Shown here one piece after another: positions 42,484 to 52,005 of a DNA stretch of 64,000 bases. Where the stretch lies: positions 490,383 to 554,382 of the forward strand of contig JAUIBF010000001.1 of NCBI GenBank assembly GCA_030428125.1, read 5' to 3'. A model generated the notes under the pieces. That model was given only the letters and a program-made list of their open reading frames with translations, did not search any database and was not told the origin of the DNA. Made by a program: the position numbers and the translations under genes. Position 1 is the first letter of the stretch, and every line of letters starts with the position of its first letter. The stretch is from a bacterium (GTDB taxonomy: Bacteria > Patescibacteriota > Saccharimonadia > Saccharimonadales > SZUA-47).

Positions 42484-42909
42484 TTATCTTCTTCGGTGAC
42501 GCTTTAGTTCGGCAATTTTTAGTCTTGAGGCTTGTCTGTCAACTAAACTCTGTGCTTTATCTAGTGAAACTTGATCTCTTGCTTCTGAGCGAAGCTGCTT
42601 AGCACGTTTTAGAGCCTCTTCTGCCTCTTTGCTACTGACTTCGGTGTCTTTGTCGGCTTCGTCAACAAGAACGCGTACGGTATCGTCTGATATCTCTATA
42701 ACACCACTATCTATAGCGTAGTGTTCCATCATGTCATCGGGATGGTTATCTTTCTTGCGAACACTTATAACTCCGGTTGACGCCAAGCTTACAAGTGGTG
42801 CATGGTTTCTAAATACTGCTATTTGTCCCTGTGGAGTAGGCAAAAGCACCTCGTACACAGATTCACGAAGCTTAACTCCAGTTAGCGTTACTAATTCTAG
42901 ATGAATCAT
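42484..42909 (-). CDS. atpC: F1 ATP synthase subunit epsilon
   Basis: N-terminal beta-sandwich pattern (LELVTLTGVK...VLLPTPQGQIAVFRNHAPLVS) and C-terminal helical hairpin; position after atpD. Confidence 0.85.
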   Translation of the reverse strand: MIHLELVTLTGVKLRESVYEVLLPTPQGQIAVFRNHAPLVSLASTGVISVRKKDNHPDDMMEHYAIDSGVIEISDDTVRVLVDEADKDTEVSSKEAEEALKRAKQLRSEARDQVSLDKAQSLVDRQASRLKIAELKRHRRR

Positions 42910-43273
42910 GATAGGCCTGGACCTCCGTCATGGGTTGATGGGCCCCTGGAAGGACGATAGTCATATCCTGGATGTGCATCAACAGACGATGCTCTTACCA
43001 CTGGATACTCTGGAGTAACGGGTTGCCAAGAACCAACTTGCAAGTCTTTTGTTGACTTTCCTCTCGCCATTTCAACCAACACTTCACTTGTAGTTGATAG
43101 CACTCGACCAGAAATCTTTGCAAGCGATAGCGCCCCAAAAACTGCACTTCCGCCGATATCCGCACAACGTTGACCAAATGGAGAGTGAAGCACTTCAGAT
43201 ACTGCACCTACAATACTTAGAGCTTTTTCTTGTGTCCAGTCGACAACTGATAGGTCTGGTTGACGTTGAACCA

Positions 43274-43274
<1 letters not shown>
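42906..43274 (-). CDS. operon-embedded hypothetical protein (122 aa) between atpD and atpC
   Basis: TAATG overlap with the atpD stop, ATGA overlap with the atpC start, AAGGAAG Shine-Dalgarno ~10 nt upstream; no motif recognised. Confidence 0.6.
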
Positions 43275-44689
<1,415 letters not shown>

Positions 44690-44726
44690 TTATAATTTAT
44701 TGCTATTCCTGTCGGTCTTACTGTTA

Positions 44727-45029
44727 TCATTTCGCCGCCCCCGTATCAATATATTCTTGGATTTTTCCACGCAACCATTCGTCTGCTAGCATACCTGCTG
44801 CTGCACTCTCCTTGGCCAAGCCTTGATGATGATTACCTGATGCAATTCCGGCAGCAGCAACTGCGGCATCTTCCGGAGTCTCACCGAACTGAACTGTCCC
44901 TGCAATAGCAAACTGTACAAATTCATAAACCATTGTTGGTGGTTGGTGGGGGTGATCCATCGCAGCTACTGCCGCTGCATGATCTTTTATACCGTCAATT
45001 AACTCTGACTGCTCTACATGTGTTGTCAT
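44727..45029 (-). CDS. operon-embedded hypothetical protein (100 aa) between atpG and atpD
   Basis: ATGA overlap with the upstream 114-aa ORF, GGAGGC Shine-Dalgarno; Ala/His-rich; 73-nt spacer to atpD. Confidence 0.6.
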   Translation of the reverse strand: MTTHVEQSELIDGIKDHAAAVAAMDHPHQPPTMVYEFVQFAIAGTVQFGETPEDAAVAAAGIASGNHHQGLAKESAAAGMLADEWLRGKIQEYIDTGAAK

Positions 45030-45370
45030 TTCATAGCCTCCACACCAAAGAAGGTTCTATTAGCCATATTTCGGCCCACAAGAAATTGTCCTGCAATTCT
45101 TATATCGTTGCCAAATAATCTTTCTGCTTCATTGGAGGCCAGTAGATAATTTGCAGACATTGCTACAGCAACCAATCCACCAAGTGTTTCCGGTATCTGG
45201 AAGCTACTTCTCCTGGCTTCAGACTGAGGATCATGACTCTCGATTCTAAATATATGTACTGATGTACCATCCTCATATTCCGTTAACACCCTGGCACTAT
45301 CTGCAAACCAACGATCGTCACGACCGTCACCCATACCAACCAATAATGTAGTTTCTGGTAAATCTGCCAT
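45026..45370 (-). CDS. operon-embedded hypothetical protein (114 aa) between atpG and atpD
   Basis: TAATG overlap with the atpG stop; GGAGCGGAGG upstream; no motif recognised. Confidence 0.6.
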   Translation of the reverse strand: MADLPETTLLVGMGDGRDDRWFADSARVLTEYEDGTSVHIFRIESHDPQSEARRSSFQIPETLGGLVAVAMSANYLLASNEAERLFGNDIRIAGQFLVGRNMANRTFFGVEAMK

Positions 45371-46236
45371 TATTTCATTGCCTCCGCTCCACCGGTTATT
45401 TCTGCTAATTCCTGGGTAATTGCTGACTGTCGAGCTGTGTTGGCAGCCAGAGTCAAATCATCTATCAAATCACCAGCATTATCACTTGCTGTTTTCATAG
45501 CCAACATTCTCGCGCTCTGTTCTGATGCCTGGCTCTCAAGATATGCCTGCCACAACTGCACATCAATTAACCGTTCAGCAATGGTTTTTAACACCTCTTC
45601 TGGGCTAGGTTCAAAAATCGCGTCAGCCAAATTATGCGAAACTCTAGCTTCTTGAAACGCAGCAGGGAGCAGTCTAGTGCTAGTGACTTCTTGCAGAACA
45701 CTGGACTTGAAGTCCGTGAATAGAATATCAACAGCATCAGTATCTGCAGACTTAAAAGCTTCTTTGATCGTCTGCAATATAGGTGACAACTCGGAAATTT
45801 CTGGCTTTTCTGGCATATTATCGTAGCTTCCTAGAATATTTAGTCCTTCTACACGCGCCACAAACCTAGATGCTTGCTTACCAACTAAAATCAGACTGGT
45901 CTTTGTACCGTTTTCTTCGTCTGATTTAAGTTCTTTCGTCAATTGACGCAAAACATTTGAGTTATAAGCGCCTGCCAGACCTCTATCGGATGTAATGACA
46001 ATGATAATCCGACTTTTTACTTCGCGAGTCGTAAACAGTGGATGCTTAGAAACGTCTGTTAAATCACGTAAGCGTGTCAAAATCTGACGAGCAGTTAAGG
46101 TATAATCTCGGCTAGCAAGTGTCGTCTCCTGAGCACGACGCATCTTCGATGCAGCCACAAGCTCCATTGCTTTGGTGATCTGCTTGGTGCTTTTGACGCT
46201 TTTTATGCGCGCCTTAATCTGCTGAGTACTAGCCAT
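45370..46236 (-). CDS. atpG: F1 ATP synthase subunit gamma
   Basis: MASTQQIKARIKSVKSTKQITKAMELVAASKMRRAQ N-terminal helix and C-terminal ITQELAEI..GA helix are gamma hallmarks. Confidence 0.92.
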   Translation of the reverse strand: MASTQQIKARIKSVKSTKQITKAMELVAASKMRRAQETTLASRDYTLTARQILTRLRDLTDVSKHPLFTTREVKSRIIIVITSDRGLAGAYNSNVLRQLTKELKSDEENGTKTSLILVGKQASRFVARVEGLNILGSYDNMPEKPEISELSPILQTIKEAFKSADTDAVDILFTDFKSSVLQEVTSTRLLPAAFQEARVSHNLADAIFEPSPEEVLKTIAERLIDVQLWQAYLESQASEQSARMLAMKTASDNAGDLIDDLTLAANTARQSAITQELAEITGGAEAMK

Positions 46237-46402
46237 TTAGTTCGTCCTCTCTGACCTTACACACAATTTCACAAATCGGCCTGCCGAACTGACCAAACCG
46301 AGCGTAGTTACATATGTTATCAGCGCTATAGGCAGAGTAGCATCGAAAATCAACTCTTGCAGTTACCTCTCCTGAAACCGGTATACTTCGCTCCTGTGTC
46401 AT
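46229..46402 (-). CDS. candidate micro-ORF (57 aa, 4 Cys) filling the atpA-atpG spacer
   Basis: My own translation: MTQERSIPVSGEVTARVDFRCYSAYSADNICNYARFGQFGRPICEIVCKVREDELNG. ATG lies 3 nt after the atpA stop; the stop overlaps the atpG start by 8 nt. Below the ORF-track length cut-off; weak Shine-Dalgarno. Confidence 0.35.
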   Translation of the reverse strand: MTQERSIPVSGEVTARVDFRCYSAYSADNICNYARFGQFGRPICEIVCKVREDELNG

Positions 46403-46405
46403 CTA

Positions 46406-47938
46406 TTAATCTCTGTATTCCTTTGCGACTTTTTCTGCTTGTTTGATGATTAGGCTACTCATCTTATCGTCGACTTTGCCGCCTTTTTCAAGCTCTTGCA
46501 TGTCTTTTTTCTTTTCAGACCAAAGAGAAGTCAGTAGGGAAGCTTGCGCTTTCTTAATCTGTTCAACTGGTACAGAGTCAAATGCTCCGCCCGTTGCAGC
46601 AATAAGGCTTGAAACCTGTTCCCAGGTGCTTAATGGTGAATACTGAGGCTGTTTCAGAAGTTCAGTTAGTCTCTGACCTCGTTCGATACGAGCTTTGGTA
46701 TCTGCATCTAAGTCTGAGCTGAACTGTGCGAAAGCTGCGAGTTCTCGGAATTGTGCTAGGTTGATTCGGAGTGAACCTGATGCACCCTTCAATGCTTTTG
46801 TTTGAGCAGAACCACCAACACGTGACACTGACAAACCAACTGAGATAGCTGGTCGGATACCTTGGTTGAACAAGCTAGTCTCCATGAAAATCTGACCGTC
46901 AGTAATCGAAATCACGTTAGTAGGAACAAATGATGAAATATCTCCAGCCTGAGTTTCGACAATAGGTAGGGCAGTCAACGAACCACCACCTTCGGCGTCT
47001 GACAACTTGGCTGCACGCTCTAGAAGTCGAGAGTGCAAGTAGAACACATCACCAGGGTAGGCTTCACGTCCTGGAGGTCGTCGAAGCAAGAGTGACATTT
47101 GTCGGTAAGCAACAGCGTGCTTAGATAAATCATCATAGGTAATCAACGCGTGTTGTGAGTTATCACGGAAATATTCACCCATGGCAGCACCTGAGTATGG
47201 TGCTAGGTACTGAAGGGAAGCAGGGTCGTTTGCACTAGTTGCAACGACGATCGTTTGCTCCATCACACCTTCACGCTCAAGTCGTTCTACTAGTCGAGCT
47301 ACTTTGCTCATTTTCTGACCTACAGCAACGTAAATGTTAATGATTCCGGTCTTTTGCTTTGCCTGGTTAATCATTGTGTCTAGAGCAACGGCAGTCTTAC
47401 CGGTTTGACGATCGCCAATGATAAGCTCACGCTGACCACGACCGATAGGCACCATAGCGTCAATCGCCATAAGGCCAGTCATCATTGGTTCATGTACAGA
47501 TTTACGCTGCAATACGCCTGGCGCGGGCTTTTCTACAGCTCCGGTTAGCTTTGTCTTGATTGGACCCTTGTCATCTAGTGGGTTTCCTAGCGGGTCAACC
47601 ACACGTCCAACTAGCTCAGGGCCAACTGGTACTTCTAGAACTTTTCCAGATAGAGTAACCTTTGCTCCAGCTTTAACTTTGACGTCAGAATCGAGCAACA
47701 CAGCACCGATTTCGTCTTCCATCAAGTTCAAGGCGAATGCGCTAACTGTTCCACCGTCTGCAGATTCGATATCTAACATTTCTGAATATCCGGCAGCAGA
47801 TAAGCCATAAATCCAAGCCACACCGTCACCAATACGTGTGACTATTCCGGCTTTTTCTACGCCGCTTGATACTTTCAGTTCTGCAATTGCCTCGCGGACT
47901 TCTGCGCTTAAATCTTTTACTGATACATCTGTCGCCAT
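46406..47938 (-). CDS. atpA: F1 ATP synthase subunit alpha
   Basis: Walker A GDRQTGKT, strong overall family resemblance, 510 aa. Confidence 0.97.
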
Positions 47939-47940
47939 TT

Positions 47941-48468
47941 TTACTCCTGGTTACCAATCCTTTTTAAAATTCCTCTGAAACTACCTAGCCATTTTGCAGC
48001 CTTCGTTGGATCTGTTGCTATTGGGTCAAAATCCTCGTCGACTGCTTTATCGATGACAGCTCTCAAATTCCGTGCTCTTACAAATTTTGGTTCGTTGCTG
48101 CCAGTTATGTCTAGAGCTGCATCAACTCTACCCTGAACATATGCAGAAGCTGCTAGGCCTGCCATTACAACCCTTATCGAGTCATGAAGCTCATCTAAGT
48201 CTACAGCTACCACCTCGACTTCACGTTGACGCCCATGAGATGACGTATACGTTCCGACGTTAAATTCATCAAGCTCAACATCTCCTCTGTCTAAAGGAGC
48301 CGCGGTAAACACTTCAACCACTTGAGGCATATCTGATATAGCTAGGAATGCGAGGTCGTGTGCCATCTCACGCGCCACATCAGTGTGAGCATCAACCATA
48401 TCAGCCAATGGCCCTTCATGAAACACCACCGGAAGAGTACTCTCAACTACACTTTCTTGTCCTGCCAT
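47941..48468 (-). CDS. operon-embedded hypothetical protein (175 aa) between atpH and atpA
   Basis: 2-nt gaps to both neighbours; GAAGGAG Shine-Dalgarno upstream; acidic; no motif recognised. Confidence 0.6.
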
Positions 48469-48470
48469 TA

Positions 48471-48746
48471 CTAACTCACTCCTTCACTTACAGGCTCTGT
48501 AGCCATTGCTTTATCAATTAATCCATAAACTCCACTAACAAATACGCCTGCGGTTTCAATGTCTGCACCTGACCTAACGAGAACATCAGCAATGTCGTCA
48601 ATTGCTTCTCTAACCTCTGCTAATCTATTAAATCCTGCTCGCTGAACAACCTCAGAAAGACCTTCTGACGCATCAGGGCTACCAGTTATTGAATATGCAC
48701 TTGCATGAATCTTTGCAAAAGGTGAATCGGAGATAGAGCCGGGCAT
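48471..48746 (-). CDS. operon-embedded hypothetical protein (91 aa) between atpH and atpA
   Basis: TAATG overlap with the atpH stop; GGAGA upstream; no motif recognised. Confidence 0.55.
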   Translation of the reverse strand: MPGSISDSPFAKIHASAYSITGSPDASEGLSEVVQRAGFNRLAEVREAIDDIADVLVRSGADIETAGVFVSGVYGLIDKAMATEPVSEGVS

Positions 48747-49135
48747 TAATTTGTCTCCATAACTTTTGCTTTAAATCTATTTAATCGTGCTCGAACAGTT
48801 AGGTCGATTTCTGATTCCATACCCTGGGCCTTAACTCCTCCGATAACTGAGCTATCGATAACTTCTGTAAATACCGGCTTTTCTGCTCCAAGAAGTTTTG
48901 CGAGTACTTCTTTGACATCATCAGAAACTGAATGAGCACTCGTAACTGTTACTTGAGTAGTGCCGCGTGAGTTTAGCTCTGCTTCTATCGCACGCGTTAG
49001 CTTACCAAGCTCTTTAGTCTGACGAGTGTCTAACAAATAAGCAGCAAGTTGTTGCGCTAGAGCAGGGGCTTTCGTTCCACTTTCCAGCTGGTCAACAGCG
49101 TATTTAGCCAATTCGCTAACAGTTATCTTAGCCAT
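48746..49135 (-). CDS. atpH: F1 ATP synthase subunit delta (OSCP), unusually short
   Basis: C-terminal SSVIGGVKAQGMESEIDLTVRARLNRFK matches the delta pattern (IGG...D.S....L..L); only 129 aa against ~175-185 aa typical. Confidence 0.7.
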   Translation of the reverse strand: MAKITVSELAKYAVDQLESGTKAPALAQQLAAYLLDTRQTKELGKLTRAIEAELNSRGTTQVTVTSAHSVSDDVKEVLAKLLGAEKPVFTEVIDSSVIGGVKAQGMESEIDLTVRARLNRFKAKVMETN

Positions 49136-49451
49136 AAGTAATCACCTCATCCGTTCCTGGCATTGGACCAATATCACCTCTAGCGGCCAACATGTCACCA
49201 TAAGCAAGGATAGCTACAGCAGCTACGTTATCGTCAGCATTAGGTACATCAGGTAAAAAATCACTCCACATCTCATGCGTACCCATCCAAGCAAGAGCCA
49301 TGTACTTTTCATCATCCTCAACTAGCACCTCTCGCATCTTTGCCCTTTTACTGTCCACAAACTCGATTTCCGCAACAAGCTCTGCGATTGACTCTCGGAT
49401 AGAATTAGAAATTCTGCGTCTTTGTTCTTCTAAATCAATAACTTCGCTCAT
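49128..49451 (-). CDS. operon-embedded hypothetical protein (107 aa) between atpF and atpH
   Basis: TAATG overlap upstream with AAGGAGG Shine-Dalgarno 8 nt before the ATG; 8-nt overlap (ATGGCTAA) with the atpH start. Confidence 0.6.
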   Translation of the reverse strand: MSEVIDLEEQRRRISNSIRESIAELVAEIEFVDSKRAKMREVLVEDDEKYMALAWMGTHEMWSDFLPDVPNADDNVAAVAILAYGDMLAARGDIGPMPGTDEVITYG

Positions 49452-49891
49452 TACACAACCTCCTTTTCTGTAAACCCTTCAACAGAGGGTAGCTCTAAGA
49501 TTAAAGTTTTATCCCTCCTCGCAATGTCTAGTACTTCACTTAGACGATCTGCATCCTCAAACCAAACAGTCCATCCTTCCGGAAGATGAATTTCGTCAAC
49601 AACCCCCGCATTTACACCACCAAGTAGGGCATCGATTGAATCAGTTTCATCTGGATTTACACCAAAAGCTCTCATGACTTCGTTAGGTACCGTACAACCA
49701 TCAAATACAGAGTTTAAAGCTGACTTTGTCCCAAATATAACTGCACCATCATCGGCTAGCTCCCGTGCATAGGACCCACCTAATGCATCAGAAACAACCA
49801 GGGGTGCAATTACTCTTGCTGCAAAAAACATATCTTCTGACTGAACTCTGTAAGGGAACCTGACAACATCGTGAGCTTCATGAACCAACAT
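49451..49891 (-). CDS. operon-embedded hypothetical protein (146 aa) between atpF and atpH
   Basis: TAATG overlap with the atpF stop; AGGAG 12 nt upstream; no motif recognised. Confidence 0.6.
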   Translation of the reverse strand: MLVHEAHDVVRFPYRVQSEDMFFAARVIAPLVVSDALGGSYARELADDGAVIFGTKSALNSVFDGCTVPNEVMRAFGVNPDETDSIDALLGGVNAGVVDEIHLPEGWTVWFEDADRLSEVLDIARRDKTLILELPSVEGFTEKEVV

Positions 49892-50553
49892 TACTTCATT
49901 GCTCCTTTGAGGTAATCCTCGACTAGTTTCCGGTCGGATTTGTCATCAAGTTTTTGGTCAAGGATAGCTTCGGTTGCTTCTGTAATTAACCCAGCCATTT
50001 CTGCCTTCAAGCCATTTCGAGCATCGGCGATATCTCGCTCGATTTTACCCTCGGCAGCACGCATGATTTCTTCTGCTTTACGATTAGCAGTATCTTCTGC
50101 TGCGTGGATAATCTTGCCAGATTCTGCATTGGCTTCAGCCAAAATTACGTCAGCGTCTTTGCGAGCAGTTTTTAGGACTTTTTCGACACGCTCATCAAGC
50201 TCAGCTTTCTGCTTATCCATTTCGGCAGTTAAATGTAGCCCGCGATTGATATCATTGTGTCGCTTATCTAGATTTTTAACAATTCCATCTAACGCAAATT
50301 TCTTCACGGCCCATAGTAAAACTAGGAAAGTTATCAGCTGTGCACCGATAGCGAAAACGTCTAGCCCAAGAGCGCCAATGCCTTCGGACTCGCTAGCATG
50401 TGAATCTTCCGTAGTGTGTGCGTCACCAGCGTGTTCTTCGCCAGAATGGTCGTCTGTTGCATGTTCGTCAGAATTTGATGTATCACTAGCAGCAAGCACC
50501 ATTCCGACTCCGGTGTCTTCTGCATCTATGACTGCCAAGATTGTCTTACTCAT
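49891..50553 (-). CDS. atpF: Fo ATP synthase subunit b with ~60-aa His/Asp/Glu-rich N-terminal extension
   Basis: TM segment FAIGAQLITFLVLLWAVKKF followed by a long charged helix (b-subunit architecture); GAAGGA Shine-Dalgarno supports the long N-terminus. Confidence 0.8.
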   Translation of the reverse strand: MSKTILAVIDAEDTGVGMVLAASDTSNSDEHATDDHSGEEHAGDAHTTEDSHASESEGIGALGLDVFAIGAQLITFLVLLWAVKKFALDGIVKNLDKRHNDINRGLHLTAEMDKQKAELDERVEKVLKTARKDADVILAEANAESGKIIHAAEDTANRKAEEIMRAAEGKIERDIADARNGLKAEMAGLITEATEAILDQKLDDKSDRKLVEDYLKGAMK

Positions 50554-50582
50554 ATTTTCCTTCTAATTATATCCTCTGTGGT

Positions 50583-50679
50583 TAGAACAACCATAACTGT
50601 TAACATGCCTTCACTAACAGATGTCGTTGTTCTAGATTGTTAAATTTAGTTGTAGAGGCCAGTTAAACCGACCTCTACA
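50583..50679 (-). promoter_or_regulatory. structured atpE-atpF spacer: nested 9-bp/6-bp stem-loop plus separate 8-bp hairpin
   Basis: TAGAACAAC (50583-91) pairs with GTTGTTCTA (50626-34), enclosing CTGTTA (50597-602)/TAACAG (50615-20). TGTAGAGG (50651-58) pairs with CCTCTACA (50672-79) immediately 3' of the atpE stop. Confidence 0.4.
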
Positions 50680-50686
50680 GGTGTAG

Positions 50687-50938
50687 TTAGAGCAAAAACG
50701 CTCCAAGAAGAAACGCTAGCAAGGCTGTAACTTCGATCATCGCTGCGATGATGATAATTTGGCTTGCTGCCTTTCCAGCTTCTGGATTGCGACCTAGTGA
50801 CTTCATGTAGTTTGCACCTACAAGAGCTAGGCCAAATGCTGCAAGTCCCAAAGCGATGCCGAGCATAATGCTCTTTGACCATGCTTCAGCAACTTGAACA
50901 TCAAATTCAGTAGCTTGAGCTAGTATTGTGTTTAACAT
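50687..50938 (-). CDS. atpE: Fo ATP synthase subunit c
   Basis: 83-aa helical hairpin, polar loop GRNPE, ion-binding Glu in AAMIEVTALLAF; AAGGAGA Shine-Dalgarno. Confidence 0.9.
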   Translation of the reverse strand: MLNTILAQATEFDVQVAEAWSKSIMLGIALGLAAFGLALVGANYMKSLGRNPEAGKAASQIIIIAAMIEVTALLAFLLGAFLL

Positions 50939-50977
50939 ATTTTTCTCCTTAAAACCGTAGTTCTGTGGTTACTTTTT

Positions 50978-51820
50978 CTATGCAACATCTGGAAGCTCCT
51001 CGACCTTAATAGCTTCGTCGTGATGTTCTTCTTCAGGGTGCGCATGAGAAATCGCCAGGGCGAGGTAGGTAGCACTAAGCACGGTAAACACATACGCCTG
51101 TATACCGGCTACAAGAACTTCAAACAAAATAATCGGGATAACTGCGACTGGAGTCCGTCCACCACTGAGGATAAGGCTGGTGAATACAGCTATCAGAATT
51201 TCACCAACAGCAGTGTTAAGGAATAAACGGAGGGCCAGGGAAAGGATACGGGTAAATTCACCGAATACTTCCAAAATACCGATGAAAAAGTTAATCGGAT
51301 TCCACGGTTTATCACTAAAGTAGTGCGTCAAGTGGCCTTTCAAACCTTGTGCACGAATCGACATAACCTGAACTGCAACAATGGCTATAACTGCCATTAC
51401 TAGCGTTCCGTTTAAATCTGCTGTAAATGGTCGGAAAATAGGGATGTGGTTAACATGAATTCCAGGACCAACAATCGGTATCAAGCCTAAGATGTTGCTG
51501 AATAGAATGAACAAGAAAAACACCGAGAAAATCGGCGCGTACTTGATTGCTTGTTTGCGATTACCAAACGCTCCTTCTAAGACTCCAATAATGAACTCTA
51601 CTAGAAACTCCAGTATAGCGATTGCGCCTTTTTTAGGCTTCACGGATGATTTTTTTGCAAGAGCATACAGGACAAAGAACATAAAGATTGCCACCAGTAA
51701 GCCATAAATCATGGAGTTAGTTACAGTAACCCCACCGATAGTAAATACTTCTTCGGCTTTTAGGGATACGTGAATACCACTATCACCTTCGGCTAAACGT
51801 GAAAATAGTGTGCTTAACAT
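50978..51820 (-). CDS. atpB: Fo ATP synthase subunit a
   Basis: Conserved Arg helix LSLALRLFLNTAVGE and late Q/Y helix. ATG at 51820 preferred (GGAG 5 nt upstream) over GTG 51826. C-terminal SHAHPEEEHHDE tail. Confidence 0.9.
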   Translation of the reverse strand: MLSTLFSRLAEGDSGIHVSLKAEEVFTIGGVTVTNSMIYGLLVAIFMFFVLYALAKKSSVKPKKGAIAILEFLVEFIIGVLEGAFGNRKQAIKYAPIFSVFFLFILFSNILGLIPIVGPGIHVNHIPIFRPFTADLNGTLVMAVIAIVAVQVMSIRAQGLKGHLTHYFSDKPWNPINFFIGILEVFGEFTRILSLALRLFLNTAVGEILIAVFTSLILSGGRTPVAVIPIILFEVLVAGIQAYVFTVLSATYLALAISHAHPEEEHHDEAIKVEELPDVA

Positions 51821-52005
51821 GCACACTCCATGAATTCGTCGGCTGTAAAGTCGGCGGCGTATCTCATATTTGATTTTATTTTATCAAGTACCCCTGGGTT
51901 TAGACAATAGTAATCTGAGGCAATAGAAGTTTTGCCATTACAATGTTTTTAGTTTATAATATTATTACTATGTATCTTGGTGTTCGGAAAGTTTTAGGTG
52001 AAGCA

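Follow-up and report, generated by a model that had tools for sequence, protein, structure and literature searches.

The F-type ATP synthase operon of a member of the Saccharibacteria was analysed in a window of 64,000 nucleotides (nt) of DNA (GenBank assembly GCA_030428125.1, contig JAUIBF010000001.1, positions 490,383 to 554,382), and the 169-nt spacer between its atpA and atpG genes was found to be filled by a 57-codon open reading frame (ORF), referred to here as o57. The reading that we favour, with modest confidence, is that o57 is a translated bridge (coupling) ORF within a lineage-specific 169-nt insertion and that its peptide is unselected. The observations behind this reading are the geometry of the ORF, the lack of conservation of its peptide, its near-random composition and a lineage-wide excess of bridged gaps. 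A sequence-only reading of the same DNA had offered a choice between a real protein and an untranslated spacer. That pair misses the explanation that fits best, which is an ORF that would be translated but whose peptide is irrelevant.

Geometry of the atpA-atpG spacer ORF

The operon lies on the minus strand at window positions 42484..51826, with the gene order atpB, atpE, atpF, o146, o107, atpH, o91, o175, atpA, o57, atpG, o114, o100, atpD, o122, atpC. The features at the atpA-atpG junction are the following.

46406..47938, minus strand: atpA, F1 alpha subunit, 510 amino acids (aa), the cistron 5' of o57; 72-88% identity to atpA of Saccharibacteria loci
46400..46408, minus strand: UAA-UAG-AUG junction, made up of the atpA stop, a second in-frame stop and the o57 start
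46229..46402, minus strand: o57, 57-codon candidate bridge ORF that occupies the whole 169-nt spacer between atpA and atpG
46245..46252, minus strand: AGAGAGGA, the atpG Shine-Dalgarno site, inside the final o57 codons
46229..46236, minus strand: 8-nt overlap ATGGCTAG, containing the atpG start codon and the o57 stop codon
45370..46236, minus strand: atpG, F1 gamma subunit, 288 aa, the cistron 3' of o57

The 3' end of atpA reads AGA GAT TAA, followed by TAG and then by ATG at 46402, and the C-terminus of its product (...KVAKEYRD*) is the same end point as in relatives. The o57 ATG stands 3 nt past the atpA stop and shares the atpA frame, with two stops between them; this stop-to-start distance would be suited to termination-reinitiation. 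Translation of o57 gives MTQERSIPVSGEVTARVDFRCYSAYSADNICNYARFGQFGRPICEIVCKVREDELNG, with no stop across the 57 codons. At its 3' end o57 reads AAT GGC TAG, finishing at 46229, which is 8 nt within atpG (ATG GCT AGT, start at 46236). The atpG Shine-Dalgarno site has a duplex energy of -6.5 kcal/mol and lies 9-13 nt 5' of the atpG ATG.

This geometry had been described in the sequence-only reading, and it was reproduced exactly from the minus strand, including the ORF and its peptide, the start 3 nt past the atpA stop, the end 8 nt within atpG, the 169-nt gap that is filled exactly with the overlap geometry ATGGCTAN, and the four cysteines at positions 21, 31, 44 and 48 (spacing C-x9-C-x12-C-x3-C). 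The same arrangement is also present, as had been read, at the junction of the insert o107 with atpH, where TAT GGC TAA lies over ATG GCT AAG (overlap ATGGCTAA).

Under the background model of the window, 3.9% of sequences keep a given 57-codon frame open, and the remaining five frames of the o57 stretch contain 1-7 stops. Taken from this gap alone, the open frame is suggestive but not decisive, and its openness is clearly non-chance only when it is set within the pattern seen across the lineage.

Bridging of F1 junctions across Saccharibacteria

The atp genes were located in 131 Saccharibacteria loci and all junctions were measured. Gaps of at least 150 nt were found at the following frequencies.

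atpA-atpG: 48 of 112 loci
atpG-atpD: 58 of 90 loci
atpD-atpC: 48 of 84 loci
atpF-atpH: 4 of 79 loci
atpH-atpA: 2 of 83 loci

The remaining atpA-atpG junctions are tight (-8 to about +18 nt), and in some of the tight operons with a gap of -8, atpA itself stops at the +8 position within atpG. When F1-junction gaps of at least 100 nt were considered (three junctions, first set of 67 loci), the median same-strand ORF coverage was 0.99, and by ORF coverage no F1 gap of this size is predicted to be left largely untranslated.

A bridging test was then applied to de-duplicated gaps of 40-260 nt from the 131 operons. A gap was counted as bridged when one same-strand ORF covered at least 90% of it, and the expectation was taken from shuffles.

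atpA-atpG: 13 of 17 bridged, 0.91 expected, P=1e-15
atpG-atpD: 13 of 18 bridged, 1.9 expected, P=7e-13
atpD-atpC: 23 of 24 bridged, 0.77 expected, P=2e-38
atpB-atpE (control): 9 of 44 bridged, 5.5 expected, P=0.08
atpE-atpF (control): 8 of 40 bridged, 2.5 expected, P=0.002

The Fo control junctions are close to chance, like ordinary spacers. Bridging by antisense ORFs was found in 1 of 17 atpA-atpG, 2 of 18 atpG-atpD and 3 of 24 atpD-atpC gaps. Filler starts are concentrated at -1, -4 and +1 relative to the stop of the upstream gene, and filler stops at +8, +4 and +1 inside the gene that follows, with +8 the commonest in filled F1 gaps (14 cases). The excess of bridging suggests that the frame is kept open at F1 junctions even where the fillers are 20-60 codons long.

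Fillers shorter than 70 aa fall into two classes by codon usage. The protein-like ones have 0.5% Cys and, as in the large inserts, much Asp and Glu, and the random-like ones are composed as expected for random sequence that is translated (Cys 2.7%, Arg 9.7%, Ser 10.9%, Leu 10.4%). o57 belongs to the random-like class (Cys 7.1%, Arg 10.7%, codon z=0.2). A Shine-Dalgarno sequence was found on 45% of the random-like fillers compared to 6% of random positions. A 38-42 aa atpG-atpD filler common to three related genomes shows 2-7 non-synonymous and 0 synonymous differences together with an in-frame length change, and its frame is open.

Coding statistics and homology of the o57 peptide

In a codon-usage model built from 53 window genes, o57 scores -0.035 per codon, which places it at the 2.5th percentile among real 57-codon chunks and at the 89th among random sequences without stops (likelihood ratio 0.35). 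With a model built from the atp genes of the same locus, o57 has z=0.2 against random sequence, compared to z=3.7-5.8 for the seven other inserts of the operon. No Shine-Dalgarno sequence was found at -5..-13 of o57, and an AAGGA at -21..-17 is part of conserved atpA codons. All the other inserts have a Shine-Dalgarno sequence 7-13 nt upstream, as do all atp genes save atpB, whose start is uncertain.

Homology searches with o57 were negative. A word-indexed search of 5.8 billion (5.8e9) clustered proteins returned the self-match only, and a full HMMER search against 1.84 billion (1.84e9) representatives returned the self-match and two spurious ones, a translated tandem repeat and a fish immunoglobulin (Ig)-repeat protein, whose E-values are owed to internal repeats. 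Neither tblastn nor blastn gave a match in 160 related atp loci, the Pfam search was empty even at E<=1, and there were only chance-level matches when the gap peptides of relatives were compared with the six frames of the o57 spacer. A profile of the atpA-atpG insert family of loci L004, L020, L030, L032 and L066 gave E=0.17 in 24 sequences against the spacer, which is not significant. In the four nearest relatives the 3' end of atpA and the 5' end of atpG are conserved, and the spacers between them are unrelated and measure 172, 711, 308 and 44 nt. The nearest relative, L001, has an unrelated 59-aa filler at this junction that has no cysteine at all. On the reading favoured here, the o57 peptide is probably a by-product that is not under selection.

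The sequence-only reading had raised the prospect that the four cysteines form a small zinc or disulfide knuckle. Conservation of the cysteines finds no support, given that none of the 160 loci holds a homologue and that the L001 filler is free of cysteine. The knuckle is likewise unsupported, as the homology, codon, Shine-Dalgarno and Cys-spacing tests were all negative. An AlphaFold2 model made without an alignment has a predicted local distance difference test (pLDDT) of 57 and a predicted template modelling score (pTM) of 0.34, with a helix at residues 37-56 only and residues 1-36 unstructured, though single-sequence models are unreliable; in this poor model the cysteines are not clustered. 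No paired CxxC or CxxH motifs are present in o57. Four cysteines in 57 residues are unexpected at the proteome Cys frequency of 0.68% (P=6e-4) but fit random codons (P=0.11). o57 resembles zinc-ribbon and zinc-knuckle proteins in being small and having four cysteines, but it has no CxxC pairs, homologues, Pfam match or confident fold.

These results bear on the wider alternative that o57 is a functional micro-protein, such as a partner peptide of ATP synthase whose four cysteines bind a metal or form disulfides. In its favour, o57 has an open frame that fits tightly between the two cistrons, and the larger F1 inserts offer a precedent. Those of at least 73 aa that could be compared between related genomes have a ratio of non-synonymous to synonymous substitution rates (dN/dS) of 0.10-0.35, compared to 0.004-0.07 for atp genes, and the larger inserts have gene-like codon usage, and they are real, fast-evolving proteins under purifying selection. 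In addition, two measures of o57 given below, its Markov score and its purine content at codon position 1, are respectively not clearly random and gene-like. However, the empty searches, the scattered cysteines with a composition typical of random codons, the model with its single C-terminal helix, the near-random codon usage, the missing Shine-Dalgarno sequence and the unrelated filler of the closest relative all argue against a functional peptide, and we regard this alternative as quite improbable.

RNA, repeat and leader readings of the spacer

Explanations that do not involve a peptide were also considered. The o57 spacer has no Rfam match at E<=10, its minimum free energy of -42.6 is less stable than that of shuffles (mean -46.3, z=+0.95), and it contains no promoter or terminator, which rules out a structured RNA element. 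No tandem, direct or terminal inverted repeats were found in the spacer, and no second copy of it was found within the 64-kb window or in the 160 related loci. A mobile repeat or miniature inverted-repeat transposable element was rejected on the absence of repeats within this scope.

By analogy with mycobacterial polycysteine short ORFs, which are outlined as attenuators in bioRxiv 10.1101/834739, o57 could be imagined as a regulatory leader-like ORF in which the four Cys codons among 57 would sense the supply of Cys-tRNA and tune expression of atpG, atpD and atpC. However, the cysteines are scattered rather than consecutive, and neither an alternative RNA structure (the fold being weaker than shuffles) nor a terminator was found. 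Nothing in o57 ties ATP synthase to cysteine supply, and in relatives the fillers are not usually rich in Cys. Given the scatter of the Cys codons and the lack of an attenuator structure, a Cys-sensing leader seems far-fetched and very improbable.

A proposed bridge ORF and the case against it

We infer that o57 is translated and that its translation is of importance for the expression of atpG, atpD and atpC. Ribosomes that end atpA at the UAA would reinitiate at the AUG 3 nt further on, without a Shine-Dalgarno sequence, and would translate the 57 codons of o57. Termination would follow at the UAG lying over atpG codons 2-3, close to the AUG of atpG and its Shine-Dalgarno site. Continuous translation could in this way cover the mRNA between atpA and atpG, guard it against Rho-type polarity and masking structure, and feed atpG. 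Selection would act on the open frame and the geometry of its ends and not on the peptide, and insertions that break continuity would be purged. Under this proposal, the surviving inserts would be in phase yet unrelated to each other because those that break continuity would be selected out.

Several observations weigh against the bridge ORF reading. Shuffles of the gap yield a same-strand ORF that covers at least 90% of it in 3.3% of cases. atpG has a good Shine-Dalgarno sequence of its own and so may not need an initiation relay, and translation of o57 would depend wholly on reinitiation because o57 has no such sequence. Furthermore, a 3-periodic Markov model gives o57 a score of 0.047 per codon, at the 7th percentile of true chunks and the 93rd of random ones (likelihood ratio 0.8, which is uninformative), and the purine fraction at codon position 1 is 0.65, which is gene-like. 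Since the Markov score is intermediate and the purine bias gene-like, o57 may be a young or weakly selected protein. Finally, no species-level relative of the o57 locus was found in genome or metagenome scans. A metagenome scan for closer relatives with the neighbouring insert o114 and an exact-sequence contig look-up both returned nothing, and for atpG the highest identity was 76% among genomes and 73% among metagenomes. There is thus no species-level comparator, given the empty o114 scan, the singleton inserts and the distance of the best atpG.

Some of these same points favour the possibility that the spacer is untranslated and its open frame coincidental, namely the roughly 3% of shuffles with an equally complete ORF, the Shine-Dalgarno sequence that atpG owns, and the random-like codons and amino-acid composition of o57 together with its lack of a Shine-Dalgarno sequence. 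Logan-derived gene calls also include the seven other inserts of the operon and omit o57. In contrast, about three quarters of the short atpA-atpG gaps of relatives are bridged where about 5% would be expected, no F1 gap of at least 100 nt in relatives is largely untranslated by ORF coverage, and the ATG of o57 stands exactly 3 nt past a stop. With the lineage as the prior (about 75% bridged against about 5% by chance), and after a discount for the missing Shine-Dalgarno sequence and the random codon usage, our own estimate is that the frame has very probably been maintained and is not coincidental. We therefore consider coincidence unlikely. The long untranslated spacer that the sequence-only reading gave as its alternative is also unlikely, as a gap of that kind at an F1 junction would be exceptional among relatives.

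Comparison with known systems

The marks of a bridge ORF are present in o57: a start near the upstream stop, a stop over the downstream start and, across the lineage, an excess of openness with an unconstrained peptide. It has been proposed that the sole function of some short ORFs may be delivery of ribosomes to a coupled downstream gene (review PMC12548453). Like those, o57 is on the same strand as the next gene, has a stop that overlaps or adjoins its start and encodes an unconserved peptide, and the role proposed for it is in the act of translation. However, o57 is located between two cistrons within an operon instead of at the 5' end and would receive its own ribosomes by reinitiation after atpA, making it a proposed relay. 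A further difference is that the gene downstream of o57 has its own Shine-Dalgarno sequence.

Mycobacterial interspersed repetitive units (MIRUs) provide a second comparison. As summarised in the review, MIRUs insert at start codons and carry an internal ORF coupled at -4, because of which the insertion does little harm (Supply et al. 1997, via PMC12548453). By that account both MIRUs and the o57 spacer are inserted DNA at operon junctions with an ORF whose ends overlap the stop and start codons on either side. MIRUs are repeated, often tandem units of recognisable sequence, whereas the o57 spacer occurs once in the window, has no repeats and shares no similarity with the spacers of relatives. 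A MIRU-like repeat is ruled out for o57 by the single copy in 64 kb, the lack of repeats and the lack of any match in the 160 loci.

The atp cistrons of E. coli are separated by short untranslated spacers, and to our knowledge no extra ORFs stand between the F1 genes there. Translational coupling has been described in the central part of that operon, at atpH-atpA and adjacent pairs, as cited in the review (Hellmuth 1991 and Rex 1994, in PMC12548453). It is the same operon, with the same logic that upstream translation affects the next cistron. We found no literature on inserts in Saccharibacteria atp operons, although absence in the searchable literature is no proof of novelty.

Other inserts in this operon and in its relatives

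Besides o57, the operon holds seven inserts on the minus strand.

45026..45370, minus strand: o114, first atpG-atpD insert; gene-like codon statistics, own Shine-Dalgarno, no Pfam family, no homologue
44727..45029, minus strand: o100, second atpG-atpD insert; gene-like codons, own Shine-Dalgarno, no Pfam family
42906..43274, minus strand: o122, atpD-atpC insert; gene-like codons, own Shine-Dalgarno, no Pfam family
47941..48468, minus strand: o175, atpH-atpA insert; gene-like codons, own Shine-Dalgarno, no Pfam family
48471..48746, minus strand: o91, atpH-atpA insert; gene-like codons, own Shine-Dalgarno, no Pfam family
49128..49451, minus strand: o107, atpF-atpH insert with the 8-nt overlap ATGGCTAA with atpH; gene-like codons, own Shine-Dalgarno, no Pfam family
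49451..49891, minus strand: o146, atpF-atpH insert; gene-like codons, own Shine-Dalgarno, no Pfam family

No homologue was detectable for any of the seven. Their spacings to neighbours are -8 to +2 nt, except that o100 and atpD are 73 nt apart. With o57 included, the eight inserts of this operon are all singletons that derive from a single 558-kb contig. The suggestion that every F1 junction of this operon carries an insert was borne out, by o114 and o100 at atpG-atpD, o122 at atpD-atpC, and o91 and o175 at atpH-atpA. Inserts at atpF-atpH and atpH-atpA, which are rare in the lineage, occur in this operon and in relatives L002 and L066.

Across all junctions, 172 insert peptides formed 153 BLAST clusters. 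Of 136 non-redundant inserts, 133 have no Pfam match; among the other 3, one matches a Crp regulator and two match 23S rRNA intervening-sequence proteins. A family of about 130 aa is found at differing junctions, namely atpD-atpC (L027 3617-4009, L146 6920-7315, L064 8432-8800) and atpA-atpG (L083 491-886 and L050 1315-1524, where the L050 copy is shorter at 69 aa). Both of the members that were put through a Pfam scan match PF05635, the 23S rRNA intervening-sequence protein. The presence of this family at differing junctions indicates that at least some inserts are moved as separate genes rather than having diverged where they stand.

In the pair L019 (6864-7802 and 9202-9621) and L097 (4864-5799 and 7199-7618), the inserts have synonymous divergence (dS) of 0.06 and 0.03 and the adjoining atp genes 0.22-0.28; this alternation suggests either recent exchange of inserts or constraint on synonymous sites. 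A family of 87-101 aa was found at atpA-atpG only (L004 5719-5997, L020 5724-6008, L030 5745-6008, L032 5730-6008, L066 5695-6000); it has an Ala/Gly-rich common core, e.g. GDxFAGAxAAG..., and o57 is no detectable member of it. Junction expansion can be very large, since several-kilobase F1 junctions with chains of ORFs were found at atpD-atpC in L020 (3786 nt) and at atpG-atpD in L021 and L025 (1731 and 1226 nt). The atpG match spans 936-984 nt, compared to 864 nt, in several relatives (L003, L032, L081-L088), which suggests insertions within their gamma subunit genes.

Other genes of the operon also show some unusual features. The delta subunit encoded by atpH (window 48746..49135) is short at 129 aa and matches the OSCP profile only at 59-171 of 172, which seems to be a feature of the lineage. 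The b subunit encoded by atpF (window 49891..50553) has an N-terminal extension of about 60 residues that is acidic and His-rich. The listed GTG start of atpB (window 50978..51826) has no Shine-Dalgarno sequence (-2.4 kcal/mol), so its true start may be elsewhere.

Significance

On its own o57 is of minor interest, as it is most likely a translated filler and no new protein. The wider pattern is more noteworthy, because in about half or more of the 131 operons the F1 junctions hold hypervariable orphan ORFs, and even where a gap is only 20-60 codons long the frame is preserved, with close start and stop overlaps, while the Fo junctions of the same operons behave as ordinary spacers. All ATP synthase components were found by transposon sequencing (Tn-seq) to be dispensable in one cultured Saccharibacterium (PMC10633639), and it is a speculation that relaxed constraint on the atp operon could help explain the tolerance of insertions.

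A broader and rather doubtful proposal is that the F1 junctions atpA-atpG, atpG-atpD and atpD-atpC are a lineage-wide landing zone, where unrelated insertions would survive only if they are translatable in phase. If this is true, bridge ORFs that are indifferent to sequence would grade into new, fast-evolving proteins made with ATP synthase, and o57 would represent an early step in de novo gene birth within an operon that looks essential. For the larger orphan inserts, roles as lineage-specific partners of ATP synthase or as conflict-driven proteins would then be conceivable. The F1 inserts of Saccharibacteria are a natural data set on how strict translation continuity in operons is and on how non-coding insertions become proteins.

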